Part shown: positions 6,670 to 19,277 of the stretch, piece after piece
Layout of the letters: every line of letters begins with the position of its first letter
Position numbering within the stretch: the first letter of the stretch is position 1
Made by a program: the position numbers and the translations under genes
Origin: Curvibacter sp.
GTDB taxonomy: Bacteria; Pseudomonadota; Gammaproteobacteria; Burkholderiales; Burkholderiaceae_C
DNA: 63,987 nucleotides
Direction of reading: 5' to 3'
Assembly: GCA_003987795.1 (NCBI GenBank)
Contig: RXJO01000010.1
Span: 1 to 63,987, forward strand
The notes under the pieces: model-generated
Databases searched by the model: none
Told to the model about the DNA's origin: nothing
What the model saw: the letters and a program-made list of their open reading frames with translations, nothing else

Positions 6670-7051
6670 GGATTGCTTTCGGAATTCGGTCCTGGAGAAG
6701 GCCGCCCTGCCGGGTGGCCCGAGTTGAGCGCCGGATTCTCGACAAGCACTCGCCGACCGGAAAGATGTCGGGCACCAAGGCGCGATACCCGGCGGTTATC
6801 GGCATGCCTTGGCTCCGTCCGCCAGGCAAGCCGGCTTAACCGCGGCACGCCGGTGGCCTTCATGCATCCAGCGACTATCCATGCGCCCAAATATTCGCCC
6901 CGCCATGGCCCAGGCTTTCTATATTGGGCACCAGGCGAACGGATCGCCCACCTACCCAAGCCCCCATGAAAAGCCAGGCTGGATCAGCGCCTGCAACGAC
7001 TGGGCCTGAGCCCGAACCCACACCAATTGATCTGCGAACTGCATCACGACC

Positions 7052-7237
7052 ATGCCCCAAACACTTCACGCCCTGCCGGCATCACCGCTTGCCCTGACTG
7101 ATCAGACCGCGCCCGCTGACGACGCGGCCCGCTTCTGGCTCGACCTCGCCCAGGCCCTCGGGATCGCGGTGCTGCTGGTCACGGCCCTGTTCCTGATCAT
7201 GGGGTTCCTGATCATGCCCGGGCTGCCCGGCGCATGA
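7052..7237 (+). CDS. Small hypothetical single-pass membrane protein (61 aa)
   Basis: ATG-started ORF with GC-biased codons and a hydrophobic C-terminus (ALGIAVLLVTALFLIMGFLIMP). Confidence 0.5.
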   Translation: MPQTLHALPASPLALTDQTAPADDAARFWLDLAQALGIAVLLVTALFLIMGFLIMPGLPGA

Positions 7238-7430: not shown

Positions 7431-7468
7431 GGCCGCCAGAAGTCTCTTTCTGGCGGCCTCTTTTTTTT
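7431..7468 (+). terminator. Rho-independent terminator
   Basis: Perfect 11-bp stem GGCCGCCAGAA / TTCTGGCGGCC, 6-nt loop, followed by TCTTTTTTTT. Confidence 0.85.
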
Positions 7469-7491: not shown

Positions 7492-8871
7492 TCAACCGGC
7501 CGGCGCCCCTCGCAAGACCTGCACCTCAATGTGATGCATCGGTAGGCCTACGAGTCCGTGGACCGTGAGTGCGTTGTCAGATTGCAGGTGCAGCGCGTCA
7601 TGGATCCATTGCAGGTGCACATGCTGCGCCTGCGAGCCCTCGGCCACGGCCACCACCGTGCTGTAGTCCCCACTGAGCAGGTTGGGCAGGTCAAATGAGA
7701 ACGTGACCCGCACACGATCGCCGGCCTGCAGGGCATTGGATTGCGAAAATTGGCTCATGCGGGTGTTGTCACCGAACAAGGCCTGACCCGTCCGGTCCTT
7801 GACCATGAAGCCGATCAAGGGGCTGATCACCGGGCGCTCAAAAGCCACCTCGATGTCGAGCCACACCGTCTGCCCGGCGACCGCGCTCTGGACCTCCAGG
7901 CCCCCGCTGTCACGCACACTCACCCGCCGCACGCTGGCGCCGCCGAGGCCAGCCCCGGAATCCTGCAAAGGCATGGGCAAAAAGTGCACCCGGCAGACCT
8001 GCTCCGGCTGCGGGCTCGCAGGCACGGCAGGCACCACCACATAGCGCCCGGCCTCGTCACGCCCGGCCTCCGCGGCGCTGGGTTCGGGCGCTCGCATCAC
8101 CTGCTGCTGGCTCGCCAACAAGGCATCCAGGTAGTCTTGGCAGACCTCTTTCGTGGAGCCGTCCTGGATCAGGCGACCTCCTTCGAGCCAGATCACGCGG
8201 TCGCACAAGGCCTTGATGGCCTCGGTGTCGTGGCTCACCATCAACACGGTGCCACGCTGCATGAAGTTGCGCAGGAAGCGCATGCACTTTTGCGTGAAGA
8301 AGGCATCCCCGACCGCCAATGCCTCATCCACAACCAGGATGTCGGCATCCACATGCGCGATGACCGCAAAGGCCAGTCGCACGGCCATGCCGCTCGAATA
8401 GGTCTTGACCGGCTGATCCAGAAAGTCGCCGATGTCGGCAAATGCCACGATCTCGTCGAAACGCGCCAGCGCCTGCTCGCGGCTGAGTCCGAGCACACTG
8501 GCGTAGAGCAGCACGTTCTCACGGCCCGAAAACTCGGGGTTGAAGCCCGAGCCCAGTTCCAGCAGAGCTGCCACGCGCCCCTGGATATCGACACTGCCGA
8601 ACGAGGGATGGAGCGTGCCGCACAGCAGTTGCAACAGCGTCGACTTCCCGGAGCCGTTGCGACCGATGATGCCCAAGGTTTCACCTCGCCGTACGCTGAG
8701 GTTCAGCCCCTGCAAGGCGGTGAACGACCGATACCGGGCCGCCAGCGGCCACCTCAACCAGGCATTCCAACGATCGATGCCGAATTGCCAGAGGCGATCC
8801 ACAGGTCGCGCATAGATCTGATAGTGCTTGCCCAGGTCGACTGCCCGGATCACGATCGGTTCAGAGGACAT
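7492..8871 (-). CDS. wzt: Polysaccharide ABC exporter ATPase Wzt with C-terminal Wzt_C-like domain
   Basis: Walker A GRNGSGKST, LELGSGFNPEFSGREN, signature YSSGMAVRLAF, Walker B LVVDEALAVGD, about 200-aa C-terminal extension; start overlaps wzm stop. Confidence 0.92.
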   Translation of the reverse strand: MSSEPIVIRAVDLGKHYQIYARPVDRLWQFGIDRWNAWLRWPLAARYRSFTALQGLNLSVRRGETLGIIGRNGSGKSTLLQLLCGTLHPSFGSVDIQGRVAALLELGSGFNPEFSGRENVLLYASVLGLSREQALARFDEIVAFADIGDFLDQPVKTYSSGMAVRLAFAVIAHVDADILVVDEALAVGDAFFTQKCMRFLRNFMQRGTVLMVSHDTEAIKALCDRVIWLEGGRLIQDGSTKEVCQDYLDALLASQQQVMRAPEPSAAEAGRDEAGRYVVVPAVPASPQPEQVCRVHFLPMPLQDSGAGLGGASVRRVSVRDSGGLEVQSAVAGQTVWLDIEVAFERPVISPLIGFMVKDRTGQALFGDNTRMSQFSQSNALQAGDRVRVTFSFDLPNLLSGDYSTVVAVAEGSQAQHVHLQWIHDALHLQSDNALTVHGLVGLPMHHIEVQVLRGAPAG

Positions 8872-9688
8872 CGGCAAATCCCTTGCGGGTCTTCTGGAAG
8901 AAGACAAAGCCCATCCAGGCGACCAAGGCGGCGATCACCGCATACAGCAGCAGCCCATCCCATTGCAGAGGTTGGGCCCAGATCAGGCAACGGCGGGTCT
9001 GCTCGATCACGAAGGTCAAGGGATTGAGCCTCAGCCACATCTGCAGTGACTGGGGGGCCGCCTCCATGGGGTAAAAAACCGGTGCCAGGAACATCAGCCC
9101 GGCCGTGGCCAGTGTCGTGATCGATGAAAGATCGCGCAGAAACACCCCGGCGGCGGCCAGCAACCAGGCCAGCCCCAGCAGCAGCAAGCCGAACGGTGCC
9201 AGGACCAAAGGAAGCTGCAGCACATGCCAGGACAATTGGCCGCCCAGCAAGCACAAGGCTGCCAACAGCACCCCCAAGTTCAGCAGGCACTGAAACAGCC
9301 CTGCCAGAAGAGGCACCACGGGAAGCACCTCCAAGGGAAACATGACCTTCTTGACATAGCTGGTGTGCTCGGCGATCAAGCCAGGGGTGCGGGTGGTGAT
9401 CTCCGCCATCCATCCATGGAGGCTGGTGCCCACGAAGAGCACGACGGCAAACAAGCCATGGGTGTCGGCCTGACCGGCCCATCGGGCCTTGAAGATGCCC
9501 GAGAAGACCAAGGTGTAGATCGCCAGCATGAAAAGCGGTGTCAGCAGCGACCACAGCACACCCAGCATCGAGGCCCGGTAGCGCTGGCGGATCTCGCGTG
9601 AACTGAGCTGAAGCACCAGTTGGCGATGGCGCCAGATCGTCTGGACGGCGGCCCACGGGGGGGTTGGCGGCGAAGCGTGGGGGTTCAT
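8861..9688 (-). CDS. wzm: Polysaccharide ABC exporter permease Wzm
   Basis: REIRQRYRASMLGVLWSLLTPL, YVKKVMFPLE, PVFYP, LNPLT, C-terminal KTRKGFADVL. Confidence 0.92.
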   Translation of the reverse strand: MNPHASPPTPPWAAVQTIWRHRQLVLQLSSREIRQRYRASMLGVLWSLLTPLFMLAIYTLVFSGIFKARWAGQADTHGLFAVVLFVGTSLHGWMAEITTRTPGLIAEHTSYVKKVMFPLEVLPVVPLLAGLFQCLLNLGVLLAALCLLGGQLSWHVLQLPLVLAPFGLLLLGLAWLLAAAGVFLRDLSSITTLATAGLMFLAPVFYPMEAAPQSLQMWLRLNPLTFVIEQTRRCLIWAQPLQWDGLLLYAVIAALVAWMGFVFFQKTRKGFADVL

Positions 9689-10623
9689 GATGAAACCGCA
9701 GGAGAACTGCGGTGGAGTGGTTCTGAAAACAAGTGGTCAGACCAGCGTCTGCGCTCTGCCTCCGAGTCAAGACCGCGCCAGGCCAGGACGTCGTCCGCAT
9801 CAAAGCACAAGGGCCATTGGCCGGCCACCGGGTTGGGCTCGTAGTCCAGCGCGTCGAACAAGGCGGTCCAATGCGGGCCAAAGGCCTTGAACCAATCGGT
9901 CTGCCAGGCGCTGCGCCATTCGTAACGCAGACCGCGCCGGTTGAACTGGCGGGCGCCCGGATCATCGCGCAACAGCCGCGCCTCGACCTTCTGCAGGCGA
10001 TTGACCTCTGAGGCCGCCACCGCCCGGGCCAGCTCCAGCGGTTCGGGCTCCAGCCCCATCCAGCGGCAGGCCTCGGCCAGCTGCGTCTGTGGCTCGGATT
10101 TCCAGTCTTCAAAGCGCAGTCGCTTGAAGCGGTTCGGGTGCTGCTGGCACCAGGCCAGCCAGCTGCGCAGGTGCAGCCAGAGCAGGTCGATGTGGGAGAC
10201 GGGACCGCCGAAAAAAGGCATCTTCAGAAAGACCTCGAAGGGCGTGCCCGCCTCGATCTGACGGTTGCGGACTTGTCGCTGCCACTCCGAGTAAAGGGCG
10301 TCGCGGGGGTCGCGCACGATGAACACCGTGCGCTGCGAGAGGTCGCACTGCCAGGGAAAGCCATGGCTGAAGCGAGGTTGCAGCGACAGATCGAAGACCT
10401 GCAGCCGACCCGTCTGCAAACTGGCCAGTGTCTGCTGCCAGGGGCCGTGCTCGGCCACGTACCGATAGCGGCCGTCCTCCTGCAAGGCCCACTCGGAACG
10501 CGTGTCAAAGCCCCAGAGCTCCCACAGAGGAACGCCCAACTCGATCAAGGCATTGGCCAGCCAGGCCGCACCACAGGGAAACTGCGGCGAGACGATGTTC
10601 AGGTTGAAAGTCGGCTGGTCCAT
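9685..10623 (-). CDS. Sulfotransferase-fold protein (candidate phosphoramidate transferase)
   Basis: 3'-phosphate-binding motif IVRDPRDALYS, LRFEDWK, FNRRGLRYEWR; N-terminal loop SPQFPCGAAWL is a divergent version of the PKSGTTW loop; start overlaps upstream stop (TGATG). Confidence 0.75.
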   Translation of the reverse strand: MDQPTFNLNIVSPQFPCGAAWLANALIELGVPLWELWGFDTRSEWALQEDGRYRYVAEHGPWQQTLASLQTGRLQVFDLSLQPRFSHGFPWQCDLSQRTVFIVRDPRDALYSEWQRQVRNRQIEAGTPFEVFLKMPFFGGPVSHIDLLWLHLRSWLAWCQQHPNRFKRLRFEDWKSEPQTQLAEACRWMGLEPEPLELARAVAASEVNRLQKVEARLLRDDPGARQFNRRGLRYEWRSAWQTDWFKAFGPHWTALFDALDYEPNPVAGQWPLCFDADDVLAWRGLDSEAERRRWSDHLFSEPLHRSSPAVSS

Positions 10624-11201
10624 CAACACGCCTCCAATGGCTGCCCGCGCAGCGCCAGCCACAGATCCAAAGCCTGATCCAGGTGCCGGGATCGGGAGCC
10701 CTCTGCAAAATCCTGCTGCAGCACCAGTTCGGGTCTGATGGGGTACTCGGCCACCACGTCGATCCCCACCACGTGAGGGACCGGTACACCGCCCGGCGCC
10801 CCATACAGGGCCGGCTTGCGCCTGCGCAGAAGTTCAAGATCGGCTTGCAACAGGATCTCGGCATAGGGGGCCAGACCGGCTCGGGACCAGGCCTGCACAT
10901 CGTGGCGAAGGGAAATGGTGGCCACGATGACCGGAATGCCTTGAAGTGCAGCCCATTGCGCCATGCGGGCCGTGCGCCAGGCCCGTTGCAGACGCTGCGC
11001 GGGAAGATGAGAGTCCTGCTCCTCGGGGGCCTCCAACAGTTGGCGCAGCTCATCGCCATCGAGCAACAAGGGGCGCTGCCCTTGCGCCCGCAAAACGGCG
11101 ACCAGGGACCGCGCCAGCGTCGACTTGCCGACCCCCGACAGGCCGGTGATCCAAAGAATCGGCGCCGGCGACAAAGCGGGCCTCTCAGATTCTGAAGTCA
11201 T
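10623..11201 (-). CDS. APS-kinase (CysC)-fold kinase, probably Cj1415-like cytidine diphosphoramidate 3'-kinase
   Basis: WITGLSGVGKST P-loop, LLDGDELR, VIVATIS; operon context; no ATP sulfurylase nearby. Confidence 0.8.
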   Translation of the reverse strand: MTSESERPALSPAPILWITGLSGVGKSTLARSLVAVLRAQGQRPLLLDGDELRQLLEAPEEQDSHLPAQRLQRAWRTARMAQWAALQGIPVIVATISLRHDVQAWSRAGLAPYAEILLQADLELLRRRKPALYGAPGGVPVPHVVGIDVVAEYPIRPELVLQQDFAEGSRSRHLDQALDLWLALRGQPLEAC

Positions 11202-11967
11202 GGCTGTACCCGGTTTCCGACAAAGCCGCCTCGACCACCGCCAGATCGTGAGGCGAGTCGATTTCGACCCAGCCGCCGGCGACCTCGACGCAGCGGATCT
11301 GGCGGCCCGCCTCGACCAGGCGCTGCAGCAGGCTGGTCATGTCGAGCCGATCCACCGCAGCCGCACCTTGATCGGCCGCCAGCTGACCCAGGCATGACGC
11401 AATCCAGCGCCAACCGGTGGGCGAAGTTCTCAGCAGCCCCATGTATTGTCCCTGGATCTCATTCAATGAAGCGGCGCGAAAGCCGATGCGGGTGAGCACA
11501 CCTTCATGCGACTGAAGCACCTCGGCATCCGCGAGCGGGTCGGCAAAACGCCGTTGCCACAATGCAAGCCACAGATGATCCACCGGCAGGCTCAGGGGCG
11601 CCGGGTCCGCCGTCACAGCACGGCGGATCGCGGCCGTGCTGTAGGCCCCATCGCCATAGACGACCAGCGTGGGGGCACGCTCCAGCCAGTCTGCTGCCAA
11701 CTGAAGGCTGCGCACCATGTTTGACTCTTGCCACCGCGGATTGAAACGCAGATCGGGCGACCAGGGCGCCAGGCCCTCAGATTGCCAACCCGTCACGATC
11801 AGCACGCGTTCGATGCCGTTCGCACGCAAGGATCGCAGCGTCCAGCCCAGCAGAGGCTGCCCGGCCAGTGACACCAGGCATTTGGGACGGTCCGCCGTCA
11901 ACGCTTCCATGCGGCTTCCACGGCCAGCCGCCAACACCACGGCCTGGCGAATCTCGGAGGCACTCAT
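11185..11967 (-). CDS. NTP-transferase, LicC/Cj1416-like (putative CTP:phosphoglutamine cytidylyltransferase)
   Basis: AVVLAAGRGSRM, RPKCL, NPRWQESNMVRSL, YGD, WVEIDSPHDL; ATG 11967 overlaps methyltransferase stop. Confidence 0.82.
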   Translation of the reverse strand: MSASEIRQAVVLAAGRGSRMEALTADRPKCLVSLAGQPLLGWTLRSLRANGIERVLIVTGWQSEGLAPWSPDLRFNPRWQESNMVRSLQLAADWLERAPTLVVYGDGAYSTAAIRRAVTADPAPLSLPVDHLWLALWQRRFADPLADAEVLQSHEGVLTRIGFRAASLNEIQGQYMGLLRTSPTGWRWIASCLGQLAADQGAAAVDRLDMTSLLQRLVEAGRQIRCVEVAGGWVEIDSPHDLAVVEAALSETGYSHDFRI

Positions 11968-12713
11968 GTGCGGGCCGTCCAAAGGCGGCTGATATAAGGC
12001 ACAGCCAACACCTCGGCCGTGCCCAGCAATTGCTCGATGCCGGCCAGGATGGCGGGCAGGGTGTCGCCGGCCTGCCGCCGCAATGTGGCATGCGAATGCC
12101 AGGCCTCCATCCAGGCCGGCCTGCTGATCTCGACCACGAATCGTTGCTCGTCGGCGCGGATGTCGTGCCACCGACCATGGGCCAGCAGATCCGGCTCAGG
12201 CGAATGCCGGCGGCGACCCAACTCATAGCCCGGCAGGTGCCGCCGGATCAGCGCCTCCACCGCCTGCTGCAGTGGGTCGTCCAGGTCGCGGTGGTTCCAG
12301 ATGGCCAGCCAATGCCCGCCCGGCTTGAGAACCCGAACGCATTCATCGAGCGCCAGCGGCGCCGGCAGCACATTGAAAGAGGAGCCGAAAGCGACCAGCT
12401 CGCAGCTCTGGTTCTTGACCGGGAGGGCTTCGCCTCGCGCCGCCAGCCAGCGGGCCCGACGATCCAGTCCTTTCGATAAGGCAAGCGCCCGCATGCGTTC
12501 GTTGGGCTCGAGGGCCGTCAGATCCAGGCCATGGTCGCAGAGCAAGGCTGTGAGCTTGCCGGTGCCGGCGCCAACCTCCAAGGCAGGCGTTCCAGCCCCG
12601 CAGCCCAAGCGTAAAAGCGTGCGCCGGATGAGTTCAGCCGAGTAATCAGCCCGCTGGTCGTAGGAGTCGGCCAGGTCGGTGTAATCCCACTCAAGCGTTG
12701 GGTTCTGGGTCAT
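11964..12713 (-). CDS. Class I SAM-dependent methyltransferase (Cj1419/Cj1420-like by context)
   Basis: LEVGAGTGKLT SAM motif, LEPNERM, FGSSFNV, RVLKPGG. Confidence 0.88.
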   Translation of the reverse strand: MTQNPTLEWDYTDLADSYDQRADYSAELIRRTLLRLGCGAGTPALEVGAGTGKLTALLCDHGLDLTALEPNERMRALALSKGLDRRARWLAARGEALPVKNQSCELVAFGSSFNVLPAPLALDECVRVLKPGGHWLAIWNHRDLDDPLQQAVEALIRRHLPGYELGRRRHSPEPDLLAHGRWHDIRADEQRFVVEISRPAWMEAWHSHATLRRQAGDTLPAILAGIEQLLGTAEVLAVPYISRLWTART

Positions 12714-12717
12714 CGTT

Positions 12718-13365
12718 TCAAGGTCCTCGAGAATTGGAAAACGTGAAGATCTGGGCCAGCCATGACCGGGTCAGGTCAGCCGCGCCCTGAGGGCGCTCCG
12801 GATGCCACATCAGGCCCAGCCAGGGCAGATCGCGGTGGCGCATGGCCTCCACACTGCCGTCAACGGCCAATGCCGTGGCCTGCCAGCCTTCGGCCAGTTC
12901 GCGGATGCCCCAGCGATGCCAGGAGTTCACGGTCTGGTCTGGCCAAGGAGACCGCAGCCGATGGGGCTGCCCGACATGGTCTTCGATCGCGATGAGCTCG
13001 CCCCCGGCCTCACGGTGCAGCATCTGCATGCCACGGCACACCCCCAGCACCGGCCATCGCCGCTCACGGGCCCGCTGGATCAGGCTCAGCTCCAGCGCAT
13101 CCCTGACGTCCGAGCTGCCCACATCCTCACCGCCCGTCAGCAGCAAGGCATTGACGCCCCAGCCCGCCAGCCAATGCAGGGCCTGATCAGCTGCTGCGAA
13201 ATTGGGCAAGGGCAGGAACTGCGCCCAGGAGGCGTTGGCACAGAACCAGTCAGACCACTCGGCATCTAGTGCATCACGAGCGCTGCTCGTGGCACTGCCG
13301 GCCAGTCGGCGCTGGGTCACCGCCACCCGCCAACGCGCGGTCGGAGCCAACGTCAGTGGAGCCAT
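12718..13365 (-). CDS. Class I glutamine amidotransferase / peptidase C26 family, Cj1417-like gamma-glutamyl-CDP-amidate hydrolase
   Basis: LLLTGGED, nucleophile motif GVCRGMQ, VNSWH, MWHPER (Cys-His-Glu triad); start MAPLTLAP at 13365. Confidence 0.85.
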   Translation of the reverse strand: MAPLTLAPTARWRVAVTQRRLAGSATSSARDALDAEWSDWFCANASWAQFLPLPNFAAADQALHWLAGWGVNALLLTGGEDVGSSDVRDALELSLIQRARERRWPVLGVCRGMQMLHREAGGELIAIEDHVGQPHRLRSPWPDQTVNSWHRWGIRELAEGWQATALAVDGSVEAMRHRDLPWLGLMWHPERPQGAADLTRSWLAQIFTFSNSRGP

Positions 13366-15662
13366 AGTCCGCCTCCTGCAGGATCGATGGTGGCCCGACG
13401 GGCCTTTCTGGCCTTGAGCAGCACGTGTTCGCCACAACCGATGGCCGCAGCCAGGCCCTGCTCGGCACAGCGGATGGCCATGTGCGAATTGGCGCCCCCC
13501 CAGACCGTGATCAAGCCGGCGATCGGGTGATTGAACAGCCAATCAAAACCAGGGTCGGCCTGCTGCAACAGGACCACGGCATGGTGAAGCGCTGCGGCCG
13601 GATGGTCGGGTCGGGGCTCAATCACCAGAGGCCCCTCGGCCACACGCTGGCCCACAAAGTTAGGCAAGGTGTTGAAGCTGTCCACCACATCGCGCTGGGC
13701 AGGGTGCCAAAGCACCGGACTCACCATCTGATGGGCCTGACCGGCATGGACAGCACAGGCCTCGTGCGCCTGGTCGGCCCAGGATGCCCGGCTTTCGCGC
13801 CCAAGGGCAGGGTCTGCCGCCAGCTGCTCCAGGCTCAGCCACGAAGCGGTCTCCCGATCAAGGCCGATGTCCTCGAAGCCGGTAGCGATCAACTCCAGGG
13901 CCATGGAAAGCTCGGCACTGAAGACCTGCTTGGCCCACTCTCGGGCGCTGGCCGTGGCCTGAACGAACGCCACCCATGCGCAAGCCGTCAAGGGCAATTC
14001 GGACTCACCCAGCAACGCCGTCAAGTCCCGGTCCTCGGCAGGGCTCAAGAAGCAGGCGCGAGATTCGCAGCCCAAATCCTGGTCTTCGATGGACACGCAG
14101 GCGGGCACGGGTCGCTGCAGGATGTCGAAGGCGCCAGGGCGCAGGGCCGCCCCCGCCCCGACAAGCCCGAAAGGCAGGAGGTGGGCAAAGCGCTGACGCG
14201 CTGAAGCTTTGATCTGGAACGCCCTCTCAGGGGTCAAAGCCCCGCGCTGGACAGCTGAGCGAAGCTGGGCTTCACCGATGAAGGCCAGACGCGCGAGCAC
14301 AGAAAATGAATGACTCCCCAGCCGGCTGCGCCGCAGGCGCGCGGGCCAATCGAGCGAACCCGGCGATGCCACCGAGCCCAGGGACAGTTTGCAGATGCGA
14401 TCCCAATGCTGGCCGAACATGGAGTCTGGCGCCGTCGAGGTCAGGCTGTGCGCCAAGCGACCCAGCGCGGCCTCCCATTGGCCCCAGCCATCGACGCCCA
14501 GCACATCGACCCATTGAGCGCGCAAATCCGAGCGACGTTTCAGATCTCGGATGGTTCTGTAGACCTCGAACTCGACCTTGTCGTGCAGCTCCGGCCGGGC
14601 CTGCAGCGCTGAGATGACATGCTGGACAAGCCGCCCCCGCAGTTCGCTGCCAAGGCCTGCGGGCAACAAGGAATTGGCGCTGCGGCGCACGTCCACCATC
14701 GGGCGCCCCTGCCAGACATGCAGCAGCGAAGCCGCCGGCTCGGGCGGGCTTGCGTAACCCATCTCGGCCCGGGCCTGCCACCAGACCTGGTCAGAAATCA
14801 GGTGCTGGAAAAGCGACAGGGCGAGGGGGCGAGGATGCGACCCCAGCAATTCAGCCGGATTCCAGTCGGCCATCAGGGACAACACGGTCTGCGGGCCGGC
14901 GACTTCAGCACAAGGATCCGGCTCACAGAGGAAACCCGCGTCTGGCAACGCGATCCGAGCGGATGGCCAAGCCCACTGCGTCTGGACAATGGGTCGCACC
15001 TGAAACAGGTACAGAGACGGAGGCGCCATGTCGACTTGAGCCGCACCCAGGGCGAACTCGATCTCGATCGGCTGTCCGCGATGGAGGTCTTCGATCTCGC
15101 GCAACAGGTCGAGGGCCTGCCGCACGCTGGTGCTCAGTTGCGCCAGCGCCTGAGGGTGACCGACTGCTTCACGCCGAATGGCATGCATCCGGCCGGTGGA
15201 GCGCCCGGCCGTGACCGTGGCGCTGTCCCCGGTCGACAGTTCAATGCAGTACCAGGGCGCTCCGTCGTGAATCCGGTGCGTGGAGGCCACACCGGCCATG
15301 GCCACGTCCGTGATCATTGTCTGGACCATCACCTGGTCATCGGGCAGGCCAGGCAGGGATTCGAACACATCGTCGATCGCGGCCTCCAGACGATGAGGCT
15401 CGACATTCAGCTGACTTCTGAAGCGGCCGGCCTGCGAGGAGTGCACCTGGTCTTCAGACGCCGCATCACTGCGCACGGCCAACAGGTGCTGCCCCAGTTC
15501 ATCTTGGCATTCCCGCAGAAAACAGGTGCGCGACGATCGCCACTCATCCAGGGAAACCACCCTGAATGCCGGGATCTCCGCAGCGCTCAGCCGTGAGCGA
15601 AGCCGGTACAGCCCGGCAGACTTGCCAAATGATCCCTCAACGGGGTCGACAGGTTTCAACAT
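13353..15662 (-). CDS. PPDK/PEP-synthase-like protein, Cj1418-like L-glutamine kinase
   Basis: N-terminal ATP-grasp (LAVRSDAASED...QAGRF, VMVQTMI, YLFQVRPI), central MADWNPAELLG and HDKVEF, C-terminal phospho-His swivel domain GGANSHMAIRCAEQGLAAAIG. Confidence 0.82.
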   Translation of the reverse strand: MLKPVDPVEGSFGKSAGLYRLRSRLSAAEIPAFRVVSLDEWRSSRTCFLRECQDELGQHLLAVRSDAASEDQVHSSQAGRFRSQLNVEPHRLEAAIDDVFESLPGLPDDQVMVQTMITDVAMAGVASTHRIHDGAPWYCIELSTGDSATVTAGRSTGRMHAIRREAVGHPQALAQLSTSVRQALDLLREIEDLHRGQPIEIEFALGAAQVDMAPPSLYLFQVRPIVQTQWAWPSARIALPDAGFLCEPDPCAEVAGPQTVLSLMADWNPAELLGSHPRPLALSLFQHLISDQVWWQARAEMGYASPPEPAASLLHVWQGRPMVDVRRSANSLLPAGLGSELRGRLVQHVISALQARPELHDKVEFEVYRTIRDLKRRSDLRAQWVDVLGVDGWGQWEAALGRLAHSLTSTAPDSMFGQHWDRICKLSLGSVASPGSLDWPARLRRSRLGSHSFSVLARLAFIGEAQLRSAVQRGALTPERAFQIKASARQRFAHLLPFGLVGAGAALRPGAFDILQRPVPACVSIEDQDLGCESRACFLSPAEDRDLTALLGESELPLTACAWVAFVQATASAREWAKQVFSAELSMALELIATGFEDIGLDRETASWLSLEQLAADPALGRESRASWADQAHEACAVHAGQAHQMVSPVLWHPAQRDVVDSFNTLPNFVGQRVAEGPLVIEPRPDHPAAALHHAVVLLQQADPGFDWLFNHPIAGLITVWGGANSHMAIRCAEQGLAAAIGCGEHVLLKARKARRATIDPAGGGLWLH

Positions 15663-15949
15663 GAAGGGCAGGCGCCTTTCCCGGCGGGCTGCGGCTGTCT
15701 TCGCAGCCGATCTCCCACCCTGCCGGGTGTATCGCACTCGTTGTTAAACGGGGTGAGCGCACCAGCCTCTGTGAGCATTGAGGCAGGCGGATCTCGAGGG
15801 CATCGTATCACCCTGTCAATGACCCATCATCCGAGCGGAGCGCAAGCGATGGACGATGACGATCCGCCGAACTGATGGTCTGTTCGATCAAGGCCGACAA
15901 GCGGCCAGCAAGAAGGCAAAATCAGGCTCGACAACATGGAGGAGACCTC

Positions 15950-18121: not shown

Positions 18122-18532
18122 TCAGGCCCCTGACCAGCGCAGGGTGCAGCGGTCACCCACTGCCTGACGCTCGACAGTGATGGCGCTGAGCTGGGGCAAC
18201 ACGGGGGCCAGTTGGCGCCCAATGAACAGGCAAAGGTTCTCCAGGGTGGCCGGGCCCAGGCCGGGCACCTCGTCGAGGAAGTGGTGGTCGAGCTGCTCAC
18301 GCAGGCGCGCGATCTCGGCACGCACGAAGCCGAGGTCGACCACCATGCCCGTGGCGGGGTCGGGCGCACCGCTGACGTGCACCTCGGCATGGTAGGTGTG
18401 GCCATGGATGCGGCGGCTGCCCTCCGCCTCGATCTGGCGTTGCAGGGTGTGGGCTGCATCAAAGAAGAAGCGCTGCGACAGTTCGAAGACCGCGCCCGCA
18501 CGAGGGAAAGCGTTGCTGGGGGAGAGGCTCAT
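18122..18532 (-). CDS. queD: 6-carboxytetrahydropterin synthase QueD-like (PTPS family)
   Basis: FDAAH, HGHTY, LDHHFLD, TLENL; start overlaps queE stop; CxxxHGH appears as SxxxHGH. Confidence 0.8.
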   Translation of the reverse strand: MSLSPSNAFPRAGAVFELSQRFFFDAAHTLQRQIEAEGSRRIHGHTYHAEVHVSGAPDPATGMVVDLGFVRAEIARLREQLDHHFLDEVPGLGPATLENLCLFIGRQLAPVLPQLSAITVERQAVGDRCTLRWSGA

Positions 18533-19161
18533 CGGATGTCCAGGACTTTGTGGGTTTGCACCGACAGGCGCCAGCGGGGCTGGGCCTGGCAGTAGGCGAT
18601 GCAGGCGCGGGTGTTGGCCAACTGCTCGGGGTTGTCCATGGGCTGCAGCAGGAAATGCTCGAAGTCCAGGTGCTGCAGTTCGGCCGGGTCAAGCCCGGCC
18701 TGCGGGTAGACCAGCTTGAGCTCGTGACCACTGCGCTGCACCAGCGGTGCGCCCGCCTTGGGGCTGACGCAGATCCAGTCGATGCCCGCAGGAGCGGGCA
18801 GACTGCCGTTGGTCTCGACCGCGACTTCGAAGCCCTGCGCGTGCAGGGCCTGGGTCAAGGCCTCGTCGACCTGCAGCAGGGGCTCGCCACCGGTCAGCAC
18901 CACATAGCGATGGCCCTGGCCTGCGGGCCACTGGGCCGCGATCAGGGCAGCCAAGGCCTGGGCATCGGCGAACTTGCCGCCCAGCGTGCCGTCGGTGCCG
19001 ACGAAATCGGTATCGCAGAAACGGCAGACCGCGGTGGCGCGATCGGCCTCACGCCCGCTCCACAGATTGCAGCCCGCAAAGCGGCAGAAGACCGCAGGCC
19101 GGCCGGCGCGCAGGCCCTCACCTTGCAGGGTGTAGAAAACCTCTTTCACGGCATAGCTCAT
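18529..19161 (-). CDS. queE: 7-carboxy-7-deazaguanine synthase QueE (minimal radical SAM, CX14CX2C type)
   Basis: MSYAVKEVFYTLQGEG, C-NLWSGREADRATAV-C-RF-C, TGGEPLLQ, ETNG, SVQTHK. Confidence 0.93.
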   Translation of the reverse strand: MSYAVKEVFYTLQGEGLRAGRPAVFCRFAGCNLWSGREADRATAVCRFCDTDFVGTDGTLGGKFADAQALAALIAAQWPAGQGHRYVVLTGGEPLLQVDEALTQALHAQGFEVAVETNGSLPAPAGIDWICVSPKAGAPLVQRSGHELKLVYPQAGLDPAELQHLDFEHFLLQPMDNPEQLANTRACIAYCQAQPRWRLSVQTHKVLDIR

Positions 19162-19277
19162 GCAACCCCCTGGGCGAACGGGCGCTGGGAACGGCACAGA
19201 CCGGAGAAGGCAGCGAAAGATGGGTGATGGAAAACGACAGGCAGCCGCACGGCGTGCGGCAACGAGGTTTTGAACAT
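19158..19277 (-). CDS. Candidate 39-aa leader ORF coupled to queE
   Basis: AGAGGA RBS 5 nt before ATG 19277; MFKTSLPHAVRLPVVFHHPSFAAFSGLCRSQRPFAQGVA; TGA overlaps queE ATG (ATGA). Confidence 0.4.
   Translation of the reverse strand: MFKTSLPHAVRLPVVFHHPSFAAFSGLCRSQRPFAQGVA

Follow-up and report, generated by a model that had tools for sequence, protein, structure and literature searches.

The window analysed here is a 63,987-nucleotide stretch of a Curvibacter sp. contig (RXJO01000010.1). It carries a co-oriented, mostly overlapping set of eight genes on its minus strand, the sixth of which (10623-9685) encodes the 312-aa protein that concerns us. We consider it likely, with a probability of about 0.8, that this protein is a phosphoramidate transferase using 3'-phospho-CDP-amidate, a reading that draws on structural models and sequence comparison. 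A predicted sulfotransferase fold that lacks the key lysine, placed inside a Campylobacter-like gene set for a P-N-bonded donor, makes attachment of phosphoramidate likelier than attachment of sulfate.

The five genes upstream of the transferase gene encode proteins with 27-35% identity to the Cj1415-1420 proteins of Campylobacter jejuni (locus L086). They comprise, in 5' to 3' order, a Cj1418-like L-glutamine kinase of the phosphoenolpyruvate (PEP)-utiliser/pyruvate phosphate dikinase fold, the former of the P-N bond (13353..15737; NF004508 at 489.7 bits, cut-off 501; 789 aa aligned at 27% identity with its C. jejuni counterpart, E 3e-79); a Cj1417-like gamma-glutamyl-CDP-amidate hydrolase (12718..13383; 28% identity to the C. 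jejuni protein; best NCBIfam match NF045546, E 3e-31, below its cut-off); a Cj1419/Cj1420-like S-adenosylmethionine (SAM) methyltransferase (11964..12713; Methyltransf_11; 32 and 28% identical to the C. jejuni pair); a Cj1416-like phosphoglutamine cytidylyltransferase (11185..11967; NTP_transf_3; 31% identity to the C. jejuni protein, E 1e-49); and a Cj1415-like cytidine-diphosphoramidate 3'-kinase of the adenosine 5'-phosphosulfate (APS) kinase family (10623..11201; PRK05541 E 1.7e-31 versus 2.2e-18 for apsK). The predicted transferase (9685..10623) is followed by the ABC-2 permease Wzm (8861..9688; ABC2_membrane, E 1e-18) and by the ATPase Wzt with a C-terminal carbohydrate-binding domain (7492..8871; ABC_tran and Wzt_C, E 7e-31), which is 55-67% identical over its full length to the Wzt of sister cassettes L005-L007. 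The transferase ATG, just 3' of a GGAGG, overlaps the kinase stop codon (TGATG), and the transferase stop codon overlaps the wzm start (ATGA). A search for a sigma-70-like promoter found none, and a strong terminator-like hairpin with a T-run on the plus strand (7431-7458) faces the operon end.

All five gene types of the C. jejuni system, Cj1415-Cj1418 and Cj1419/Cj1420, are present. The Curvibacter cassette differs in having a single methyltransferase and in standing free among unrelated genes of a 64% GC genome, with no capsule locus. Its kinase resembles that of C. jejuni (E 1e-28) more than it does a CysC (E 6e-14), and the segments HGLCGDLGFS, ENIRR, and FISPY of CysC are missing from it; in a quick-mode tree with long branches it lies outside the CysC-containing clade and is not placed with Cj1415, a placement that is not firm. 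Two further runs, belonging to two separate studies, gave contigs with the same operon order, X2 being represented by one 8,783-base contig with 12 differences. RNA run X19 yielded contigs of a relative ~93% identical across the operon, contigs that cannot show transcription.

The 312-aa protein contains the three motifs exactly as the initial annotation had given them: SPQFPCGAAWL at residues 12-22, IVRDPRDALYS at 102-112, and FNRRGLRYEWR at 227-237. It matches Pfam Sulfotransfer_1 (PF00685) with an E-value of 6.5e-13 (49 bits against a cut-off of 22), and the profile of its family places SH, RDPRDxLxS, RFED, and FNRRG..W in register with SH, RNPKDxLxS, FYED, and FMRKG..W of human SULT1C3. 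An AlphaFold2 (AF2) model built from 79 sequences reached a pLDDT of 95. All 39 Foldseek matches listed for this model were sulfotransferase-family entries (best E 2e-7), and the top VIA-align match was likewise a sulfotransferase (Z 15.3, rmsd 4.0, 223 residues aligned). The fold on which the earlier proposal depended is the one that these models predict. A homologue named from Hydrogenophaga soli is 77% identical, and no further PF00685 or PF13469 match was found in the host genome, which is 94.75% complete.

The loop lysine or arginine, the helix serine, and the sheet are treated as defining for sulfotransferases in passages of the review PMC11625862, which also note non-consensus loops. 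The 312-aa protein has the central beta-sheet fold that binds 3'-phosphoadenosine 5'-phosphosulfate (PAPS), according to both the model and Pfam; the 3'-phosphate-binding motif RxxxDxxxS with its helix serine (Arg104, Asp108, Ser112); and a catalytic base, His87, which pairs with the SH histidine of SULT1C3. The lysine or arginine of the 5'-phosphosulfate-binding loop is absent, with Pro16 in its place. With the cytosolic sulfotransferases (PF00685; SULT1/2/3/7, Teg12/StaL) the protein further shares an RKG-like C-terminal motif and the glycine and tryptophan of the loop. Compared with the loop SYPKSGNTW of control proteins, its own is one residue longer and has proline at the lysine position.

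We scored these residues across 294 distinct pooled rows of the family, each position where present. Gly18 (266/266), Arg104 (285/285), and Ser112 (284/284) are invariant, and 257 of 271 rows retain His87. The lysine position holds proline in 237 of 262 rows, arginine in one, and lysine in none, a count that is partly circular, as the profile and one of the two patterns used for scanning are biased toward the PCGAAW-type loop, and a profile made from Lys-less loops tends to miss canonical loops in alignment. The alignment argues that the Lys-less loop is selected rather than a product of drift, because the glycine is universal, proline predominates, and lysine never occurs. The initial annotation had reported the lysine and both threonines as missing; the loss of lysine holds family-wide, but that of threonine fails as a family trait because the second threonine position is Ser or Thr in 120 of 266 rows. 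The eight partial matches that were retrieved from searches of class and relatives' genomes, to serve as a control, all have canonical K/R loops. The family, referred to here by its PCGAAW loop, comprises 169 clusters at 50% identity (E < 1e-30), and a plasmid search with the 312-aa protein returned a single weak partial match. Tandem double sulfotransferase-domain proteins also occur (P0105, P0113, P0117, P0119, and P0149), in which both loops, of the NLQNSGASAI and PF[AS][CS]GVAW types, are without lysine.

We then compared the protein with the O-methyl phosphoramidate (MeOPN) transferases of C. jejuni, Cj1421 and Cj1422. In Campylobacter and Helicobacter glutamine-kinase loci, the gene adjoining the methyltransferases encodes DUF2972 proteins, which passages of PMC5808241 tie to Cj1421/Cj1422 and for which NCBIfam has the name "O-methyl phosphoramidate transferase" (NF058596, CJJ1420_fam). 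Full-length P0319 and P0269 pass the NF058596 cut-off, and the C. jejuni fragment L086:102-1232, the folded C-terminal part, covers profile positions 204-596. An AF2 model of this fragment (35 sequences, pLDDT 90) was submitted to VIA, where the top 18 rows were all sulfotransferases (best 7sce, Z 12.7, rmsd 4.4, 212 aligned, residues 3-361) and the first kinase row came at Z 9.2. Among 35 rows of the Cj1421/22 family, the position two before the loop glycine is never lysine and only once arginine, and 33 rows retain the RDP arginine. This modelling predicts the C. jejuni MeOPN transferases to have a sulfotransferase fold with a Lys-less loop. As they are the only phosphoramidate transferases to be genetically defined, this prediction is the strongest support for phosphoramidate transfer by the Curvibacter protein.

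A link at the sequence level was sought and rejected (blastp E 0.81, hhalign probability 2-6%, no relevant PDB match for the DUF2972 profile), and since such links are too weak alone, we relied for this comparison on structure prediction only. The 312-aa protein matches neither NF058596 nor PF11186, even at E 0.1. The earlier statement that the operon has no Cj1421/22-type transferase is thus correct by sequence but not by fold. The two kinds of protein share the same donor pathway next door, being encoded with Cj1415-1418 and a methyltransferase; the same predicted catalytic fold, both models matching sulfotransferases best in a comparison made via these database matches; a Lys-less beta-loop-helix; and a 3'-phosphate motif, RDP..R.K[ST] in the Cj1421/22 family, in register with RDPRDALYS. 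They differ in size and setting: the Curvibacter protein is a single domain, whereas Cj1421/22 have ~610 aa with a ~240-aa N-terminal part and an inserted DUF2972 subdomain (C-terminal Pfam PF11186); the former is structurally nearer to the cytosolic SULTs, whereas the top rows of the Campylobacter model are heparan-sulfate sulfotransferases; and the former is linked to Wzm/Wzt-C, the latter to Kps. From the models, we regard the 312-aa protein as probably a compact structural relative of Cj1421/22, unrelated in sequence, and not a separate class.

The gene neighbourhoods of family members were assessed in 57 metagenomic loci, six near-identical pairs included. At least one cassette gene was present in 47 of them, and the remaining 10 loci are only 1.4-7.3 kb long. 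Among the 26 loci of at least 8 kb, a glutamine kinase was found in 22 and a 3'-kinase in 25; two of the four without glutamine kinase (L001, L035) have a contig edge 1-2.5 kb upstream, and the other two are the distant subfamilies L040 and L053. No cysD or cysN was found in any of the 57 loci, so that the expected co-occurrence with Cj1418-like genes, rather than with cysDN, was borne out, and the family differs from cytosolic sulfotransferases in being linked to a CTP-based P-N pathway. As background, a glutamine kinase is present in 6 of the 399 other class genomes, and none of these six is among the 22 class genomes with partial matches of the kind that served as a control. In the nearest cassettes (L002-L008), and again in a distant subfamily (L043, L044, L047, L049), wzm and wzt lie next to the transferase gene, and one 595-aa protein (P0087) is a transferase-Wzm fusion, possibly a frameshift artefact at the ATGA overlap. 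A B12-binding radical-SAM gene lies directly 3' of the transferase gene in sister cassettes L003, L006 (10911-12662), and L007.

In the reverse direction, a motif scan gave 120 glutamine-kinase loci, of which 80 with flanks were counted, the 40 of only ~600 bases being set aside. Of the 46 3'-kinase-positive loci, 34 contain a sulfotransferase-fold gene, against 8 of the 34 kinase-negative ones; for TagF-like genes the figures are 4 of 46 and 10 of 34. The classifying hidden Markov models (HMMs) were seeded from these same 80 loci, and kin among them are not independent, so that relatedness inflates the statistics. Two weak kinases and a CysC-like one are counted as kinase-positive. Restricting the count to full flanks outside Campylobacter and Helicobacter gave 20/27 versus 2/16 for sulfotransferase-fold genes and 1/27 versus 6/16 for TagF-like genes, and Pfam confirmed 26 of the 30 sulfotransferase candidates and all 11 TagF candidates that were submitted to it. 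TagF-like CDP-alcohol phosphotransferases (PF04464) are an unrelated family and a probable alternative transferase in glutamine-kinase cassettes; their enrichment where the 3'-kinase is absent suggests that they probably use unphosphorylated CDP-amidate. A held-out kinase-negative cassette has TagF adjacent, and TagF-like neighbours were also seen in kinase-less plasmid cassettes of Roseovarius and of Vibrio, in the latter beside cysDN. CysQ-like phosphatases, expected if a 3',5'-bisphosphate is released, occur in all eight kinase-positive loci of one cluster, and in a Helicobacter locus a CysQ-like inositol-monophosphatase domain is fused to a Cj1415-type kinase (L067:5413-6780). On an Azospirillum lipoferum 4B plasmid (L059:8473-11013), the kinase is fused C-terminally to a 650-aa region with a weakly Sulfotransfer_2-like N-terminus (E 0.19); Azospirillum also carries a PCGAAW-family member. 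The Smac51 plasmid has the kinase and no recognised sulfotransferase-fold gene.

Glutamine-kinase cassettes (L064-L143) are widespread, being found in the archaeal DPANN and Methanosarcinales and in Pelagibacteraceae, Prochlorococcus, Leptospira, Fusobacterium, and others. Those without the 3'-kinase often combine an N-terminally extended kinase of ~1000 aa with a TagF-like or CDP-alcohol-phosphatidyltransferase-like neighbour, the latter labelled by reading sequences.

Several observations weigh against the assignment of phosphoramidate transfer. Twelve of the 46 kinase-positive loci have no sulfotransferase-fold gene, and eight of the 34 kinase-negative loci have one, three of these being from Campylobacter/Helicobacter and three truncated. 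In a held-out set of six genomes, one of them too short, the four kinase-positive cases comprised two Pfam-confirmed neighbours, one weak local-HMM match, and one without any. Many sulfotransferase-fold partners of the kinase keep the loop arginine and a few look canonical (L064, L095, L122); some of the 34 may therefore be ordinary sulfotransferases. For the same reason, an eroded loop is not in itself diagnostic of the chemistry: judged by the alignments, loss of the lysine is a mark of the PCGAAW family and Cj1421/22 and not a requirement among 3'-kinase partners. We also considered that loss of Lys/Arg tracks the methyltransferase, as for a pre-methylated neutral donor, and rejected this, as Arg-bearing loops occur both with and without a methyltransferase. 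Two distant Lys-less subfamilies lie beside PEP mutase with no glutamine kinase: L040 (8512-12470), with a cytidylyltransferase-PEP mutase fusion, a kinase, a methyltransferase, and Gln in place of His87, and L053 (8133-10796). These suggest a phosphonate-transfer branch. Close cassettes L001, L009, and L010 lack wzm/wzt. In the comparison with Cj1421/22, the best Foldseek match of the Campylobacter model, at E 1.6e-3, is weaker and short of E 0.001, and the profiles of the two families place the three motifs in register without significance (hhalign E 0.006-0.024, probability 2-6%). Finally, true CysC is also present in 2 of the 57 loci (L039, L043), and the host genome carries cysDN on another contig (C116), away from the operon.

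The last two points bear on the alternative that survives best, although it is improbable, namely that the 312-aa protein is a true PAPS-dependent sulfotransferase: CysDN would make APS, the operon kinase would also make PAPS, the same glycan would be sulfated, and a different enzyme would transfer phosphoramidate. The initial annotation was right that the operon has no ATP sulfurylase, but with cysDN in the genome APS exists, and the operon kinase, the only strong APS-kinase-family match there, could moonlight to make PAPS. Pfam and structure group the protein with sulfotransferases, and the non-consensus loops of PMC11625862 would accommodate its own. This alternative is countered by the complete absence of a lysine treated as defining, by the lack of cysDN from all 57 homologous loci, and by a kinase that is without the CysC segments and nearer to Cj1415. 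It would also leave the cassette without a candidate transferase, and the known MeOPN transferases have the same predicted fold.

Slightly less probable still is an accessory, non-transferring role in binding, channelling, or hydrolysis of the 3'-phosphorylated donor or of its product, cytidine 3',5'-bisphosphate (pCp), with the real transferase encoded elsewhere. Loss of the transition-state lysine and the 12 kinase-positive loci without a nearby sulfotransferase-fold gene would fit such a role; retention of His87 in nearly all rows, the lack of a second sulfotransferase-family match in the genome, and the C. jejuni transferases, which are genetically defined and have the same predicted fold and a Lys-less loop, argue against it.

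If the 312-aa protein is a phosphoramidate transferase, a mechanism can be proposed. In C. jejuni, Cj1415-1418 make CDP-phosphoramidate 3'-phosphate, called the "likely donor" in passages of PMC11800397. The four homologues would make the same 3'-phospho-CDP-amidate, a PAPS look-alike, which would be bound in the predicted sulfotransferase-type site, with Arg104, Ser112, and Arg229-Gly231 holding the 3'-phosphate and the loop backbone holding the 5'-phosphate. His87 would deprotonate the acceptor hydroxyl for in-line attack on the beta-phosphorus, as on sulfur in PAPS. The terminal phosphoramidate would pass to a hydroxyl of a surface glycan, probably exported by Wzm/Wzt, with release of pCp, and the methyltransferase would add the O-methyl group before or after transfer. 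As the eight genes include no glycosyltransferase, the acceptor glycan would be made outside the operon, and a candidate source is a wecA/GT2/wzm/wzt locus on contig C206. That locus (C206:995-14082, L218) contains a second wzm/wzt, a WecA-like gene, a 1300-aa methyltransferase-GT2 protein, and a PPIase, as well as an unannotated 634-aa protein that looks secreted and lies beside type II secretion-like genes.

An acceptor other than an ABC-exported glycan, that is, a small molecule, lipid, or protein, with wzm/wzt as passengers, seems unlikely: the missing glycosyltransferase, a structure nearest to cytosolic small-molecule SULTs and Teg/StaL, the three cassettes without a transporter, and the B12 radical-SAM gene added in three others speak for it, but wzm/wzt adjoin the gene in close and distant cassettes alike, the transferase-Wzm fusion exists, and the characterised system decorates glycans. 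According to the abstract of PMC9445017, a terminal cap is often what the carbohydrate-binding domain of a Wzt recognises; together with the wzm/wzt adjacency and the fusion, this makes an ABC-exported glycan the probable acceptor of the phosphoramidate. That the group is itself a chain-end cap read by the operon's Wzt-C is a tentative and rather doubtful extension, opposed by the three close cassettes that lack the transporter.

A broader proposal, for which we judge the odds to be about even, is that a whole class of substituted-phosphate transferases, so far unrecognised, has the sulfotransferase fold. The 3'-phosphate added by a CysC-like kinase would make a CDP-linked donor a PAPS mimic, rerouting it from TagF-type to sulfotransferase-fold enzymes. 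Members would include Cj1421/22, the PCGAAW family, and proteins of other bacterial and archaeal lineages, with phosphonate branches at L040 and L053; in Curvibacter, the O-methyl phosphoramidate would be an export cap read by Wzt-C.

Elsewhere in the window, a short membrane-peptide-like open reading frame lies on the plus strand near 7050-7230, and a queD/queE-like pair (6-carboxytetrahydropterin synthase and radical SAM), labelled by reading the sequence, lies at 18122-19197.

In the literature searched, we found no paper in which either a phosphoramidate transferase or DUF2972 is given a sulfotransferase fold; Taylor & Raushel 2018, on the kinase, and McNally 2007 lay outside the search, and the PAPS analogy may stand there. 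The word "sulfotransferase" is absent from the passages seen of the Borg preprint, the Petkowski review, PMC12409886, and the C. difficile preprint, and the excerpts of a paper on a wzt-adjacent sulfotransferase of Aeromonas (PMC4483657) make no link to phosphoramidate. Passages of two 2025 papers, one of them PMC11800397, call the 3'-phosphorylated donor only "likely" and leave the decoration step to be worked out. Phosphoramidate transfer is probably an unreported chemistry for this fold. Passages of PMC3907429 mention unmethylated phosphoramidates in the lipopolysaccharide of Xanthomonas and Shewanella, and MeOPN is described in part of PMC5808241 as a phage receptor in C. jejuni.

A shared sulfotransferase fold, if true, would explain why the donor is 3'-phosphorylated and would assign a fold to the DUF2972 proteins, in which the reported "transmembrane" segment after residue 244 would probably be the nucleotide-binding strand-loop-helix. 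It would predict pCp as the product, and the 312-aa single-domain enzyme would suit a first in vitro test. Many genes now annotated as "sulfotransferase" and "adenylylsulfate kinase" would then carry the wrong name.

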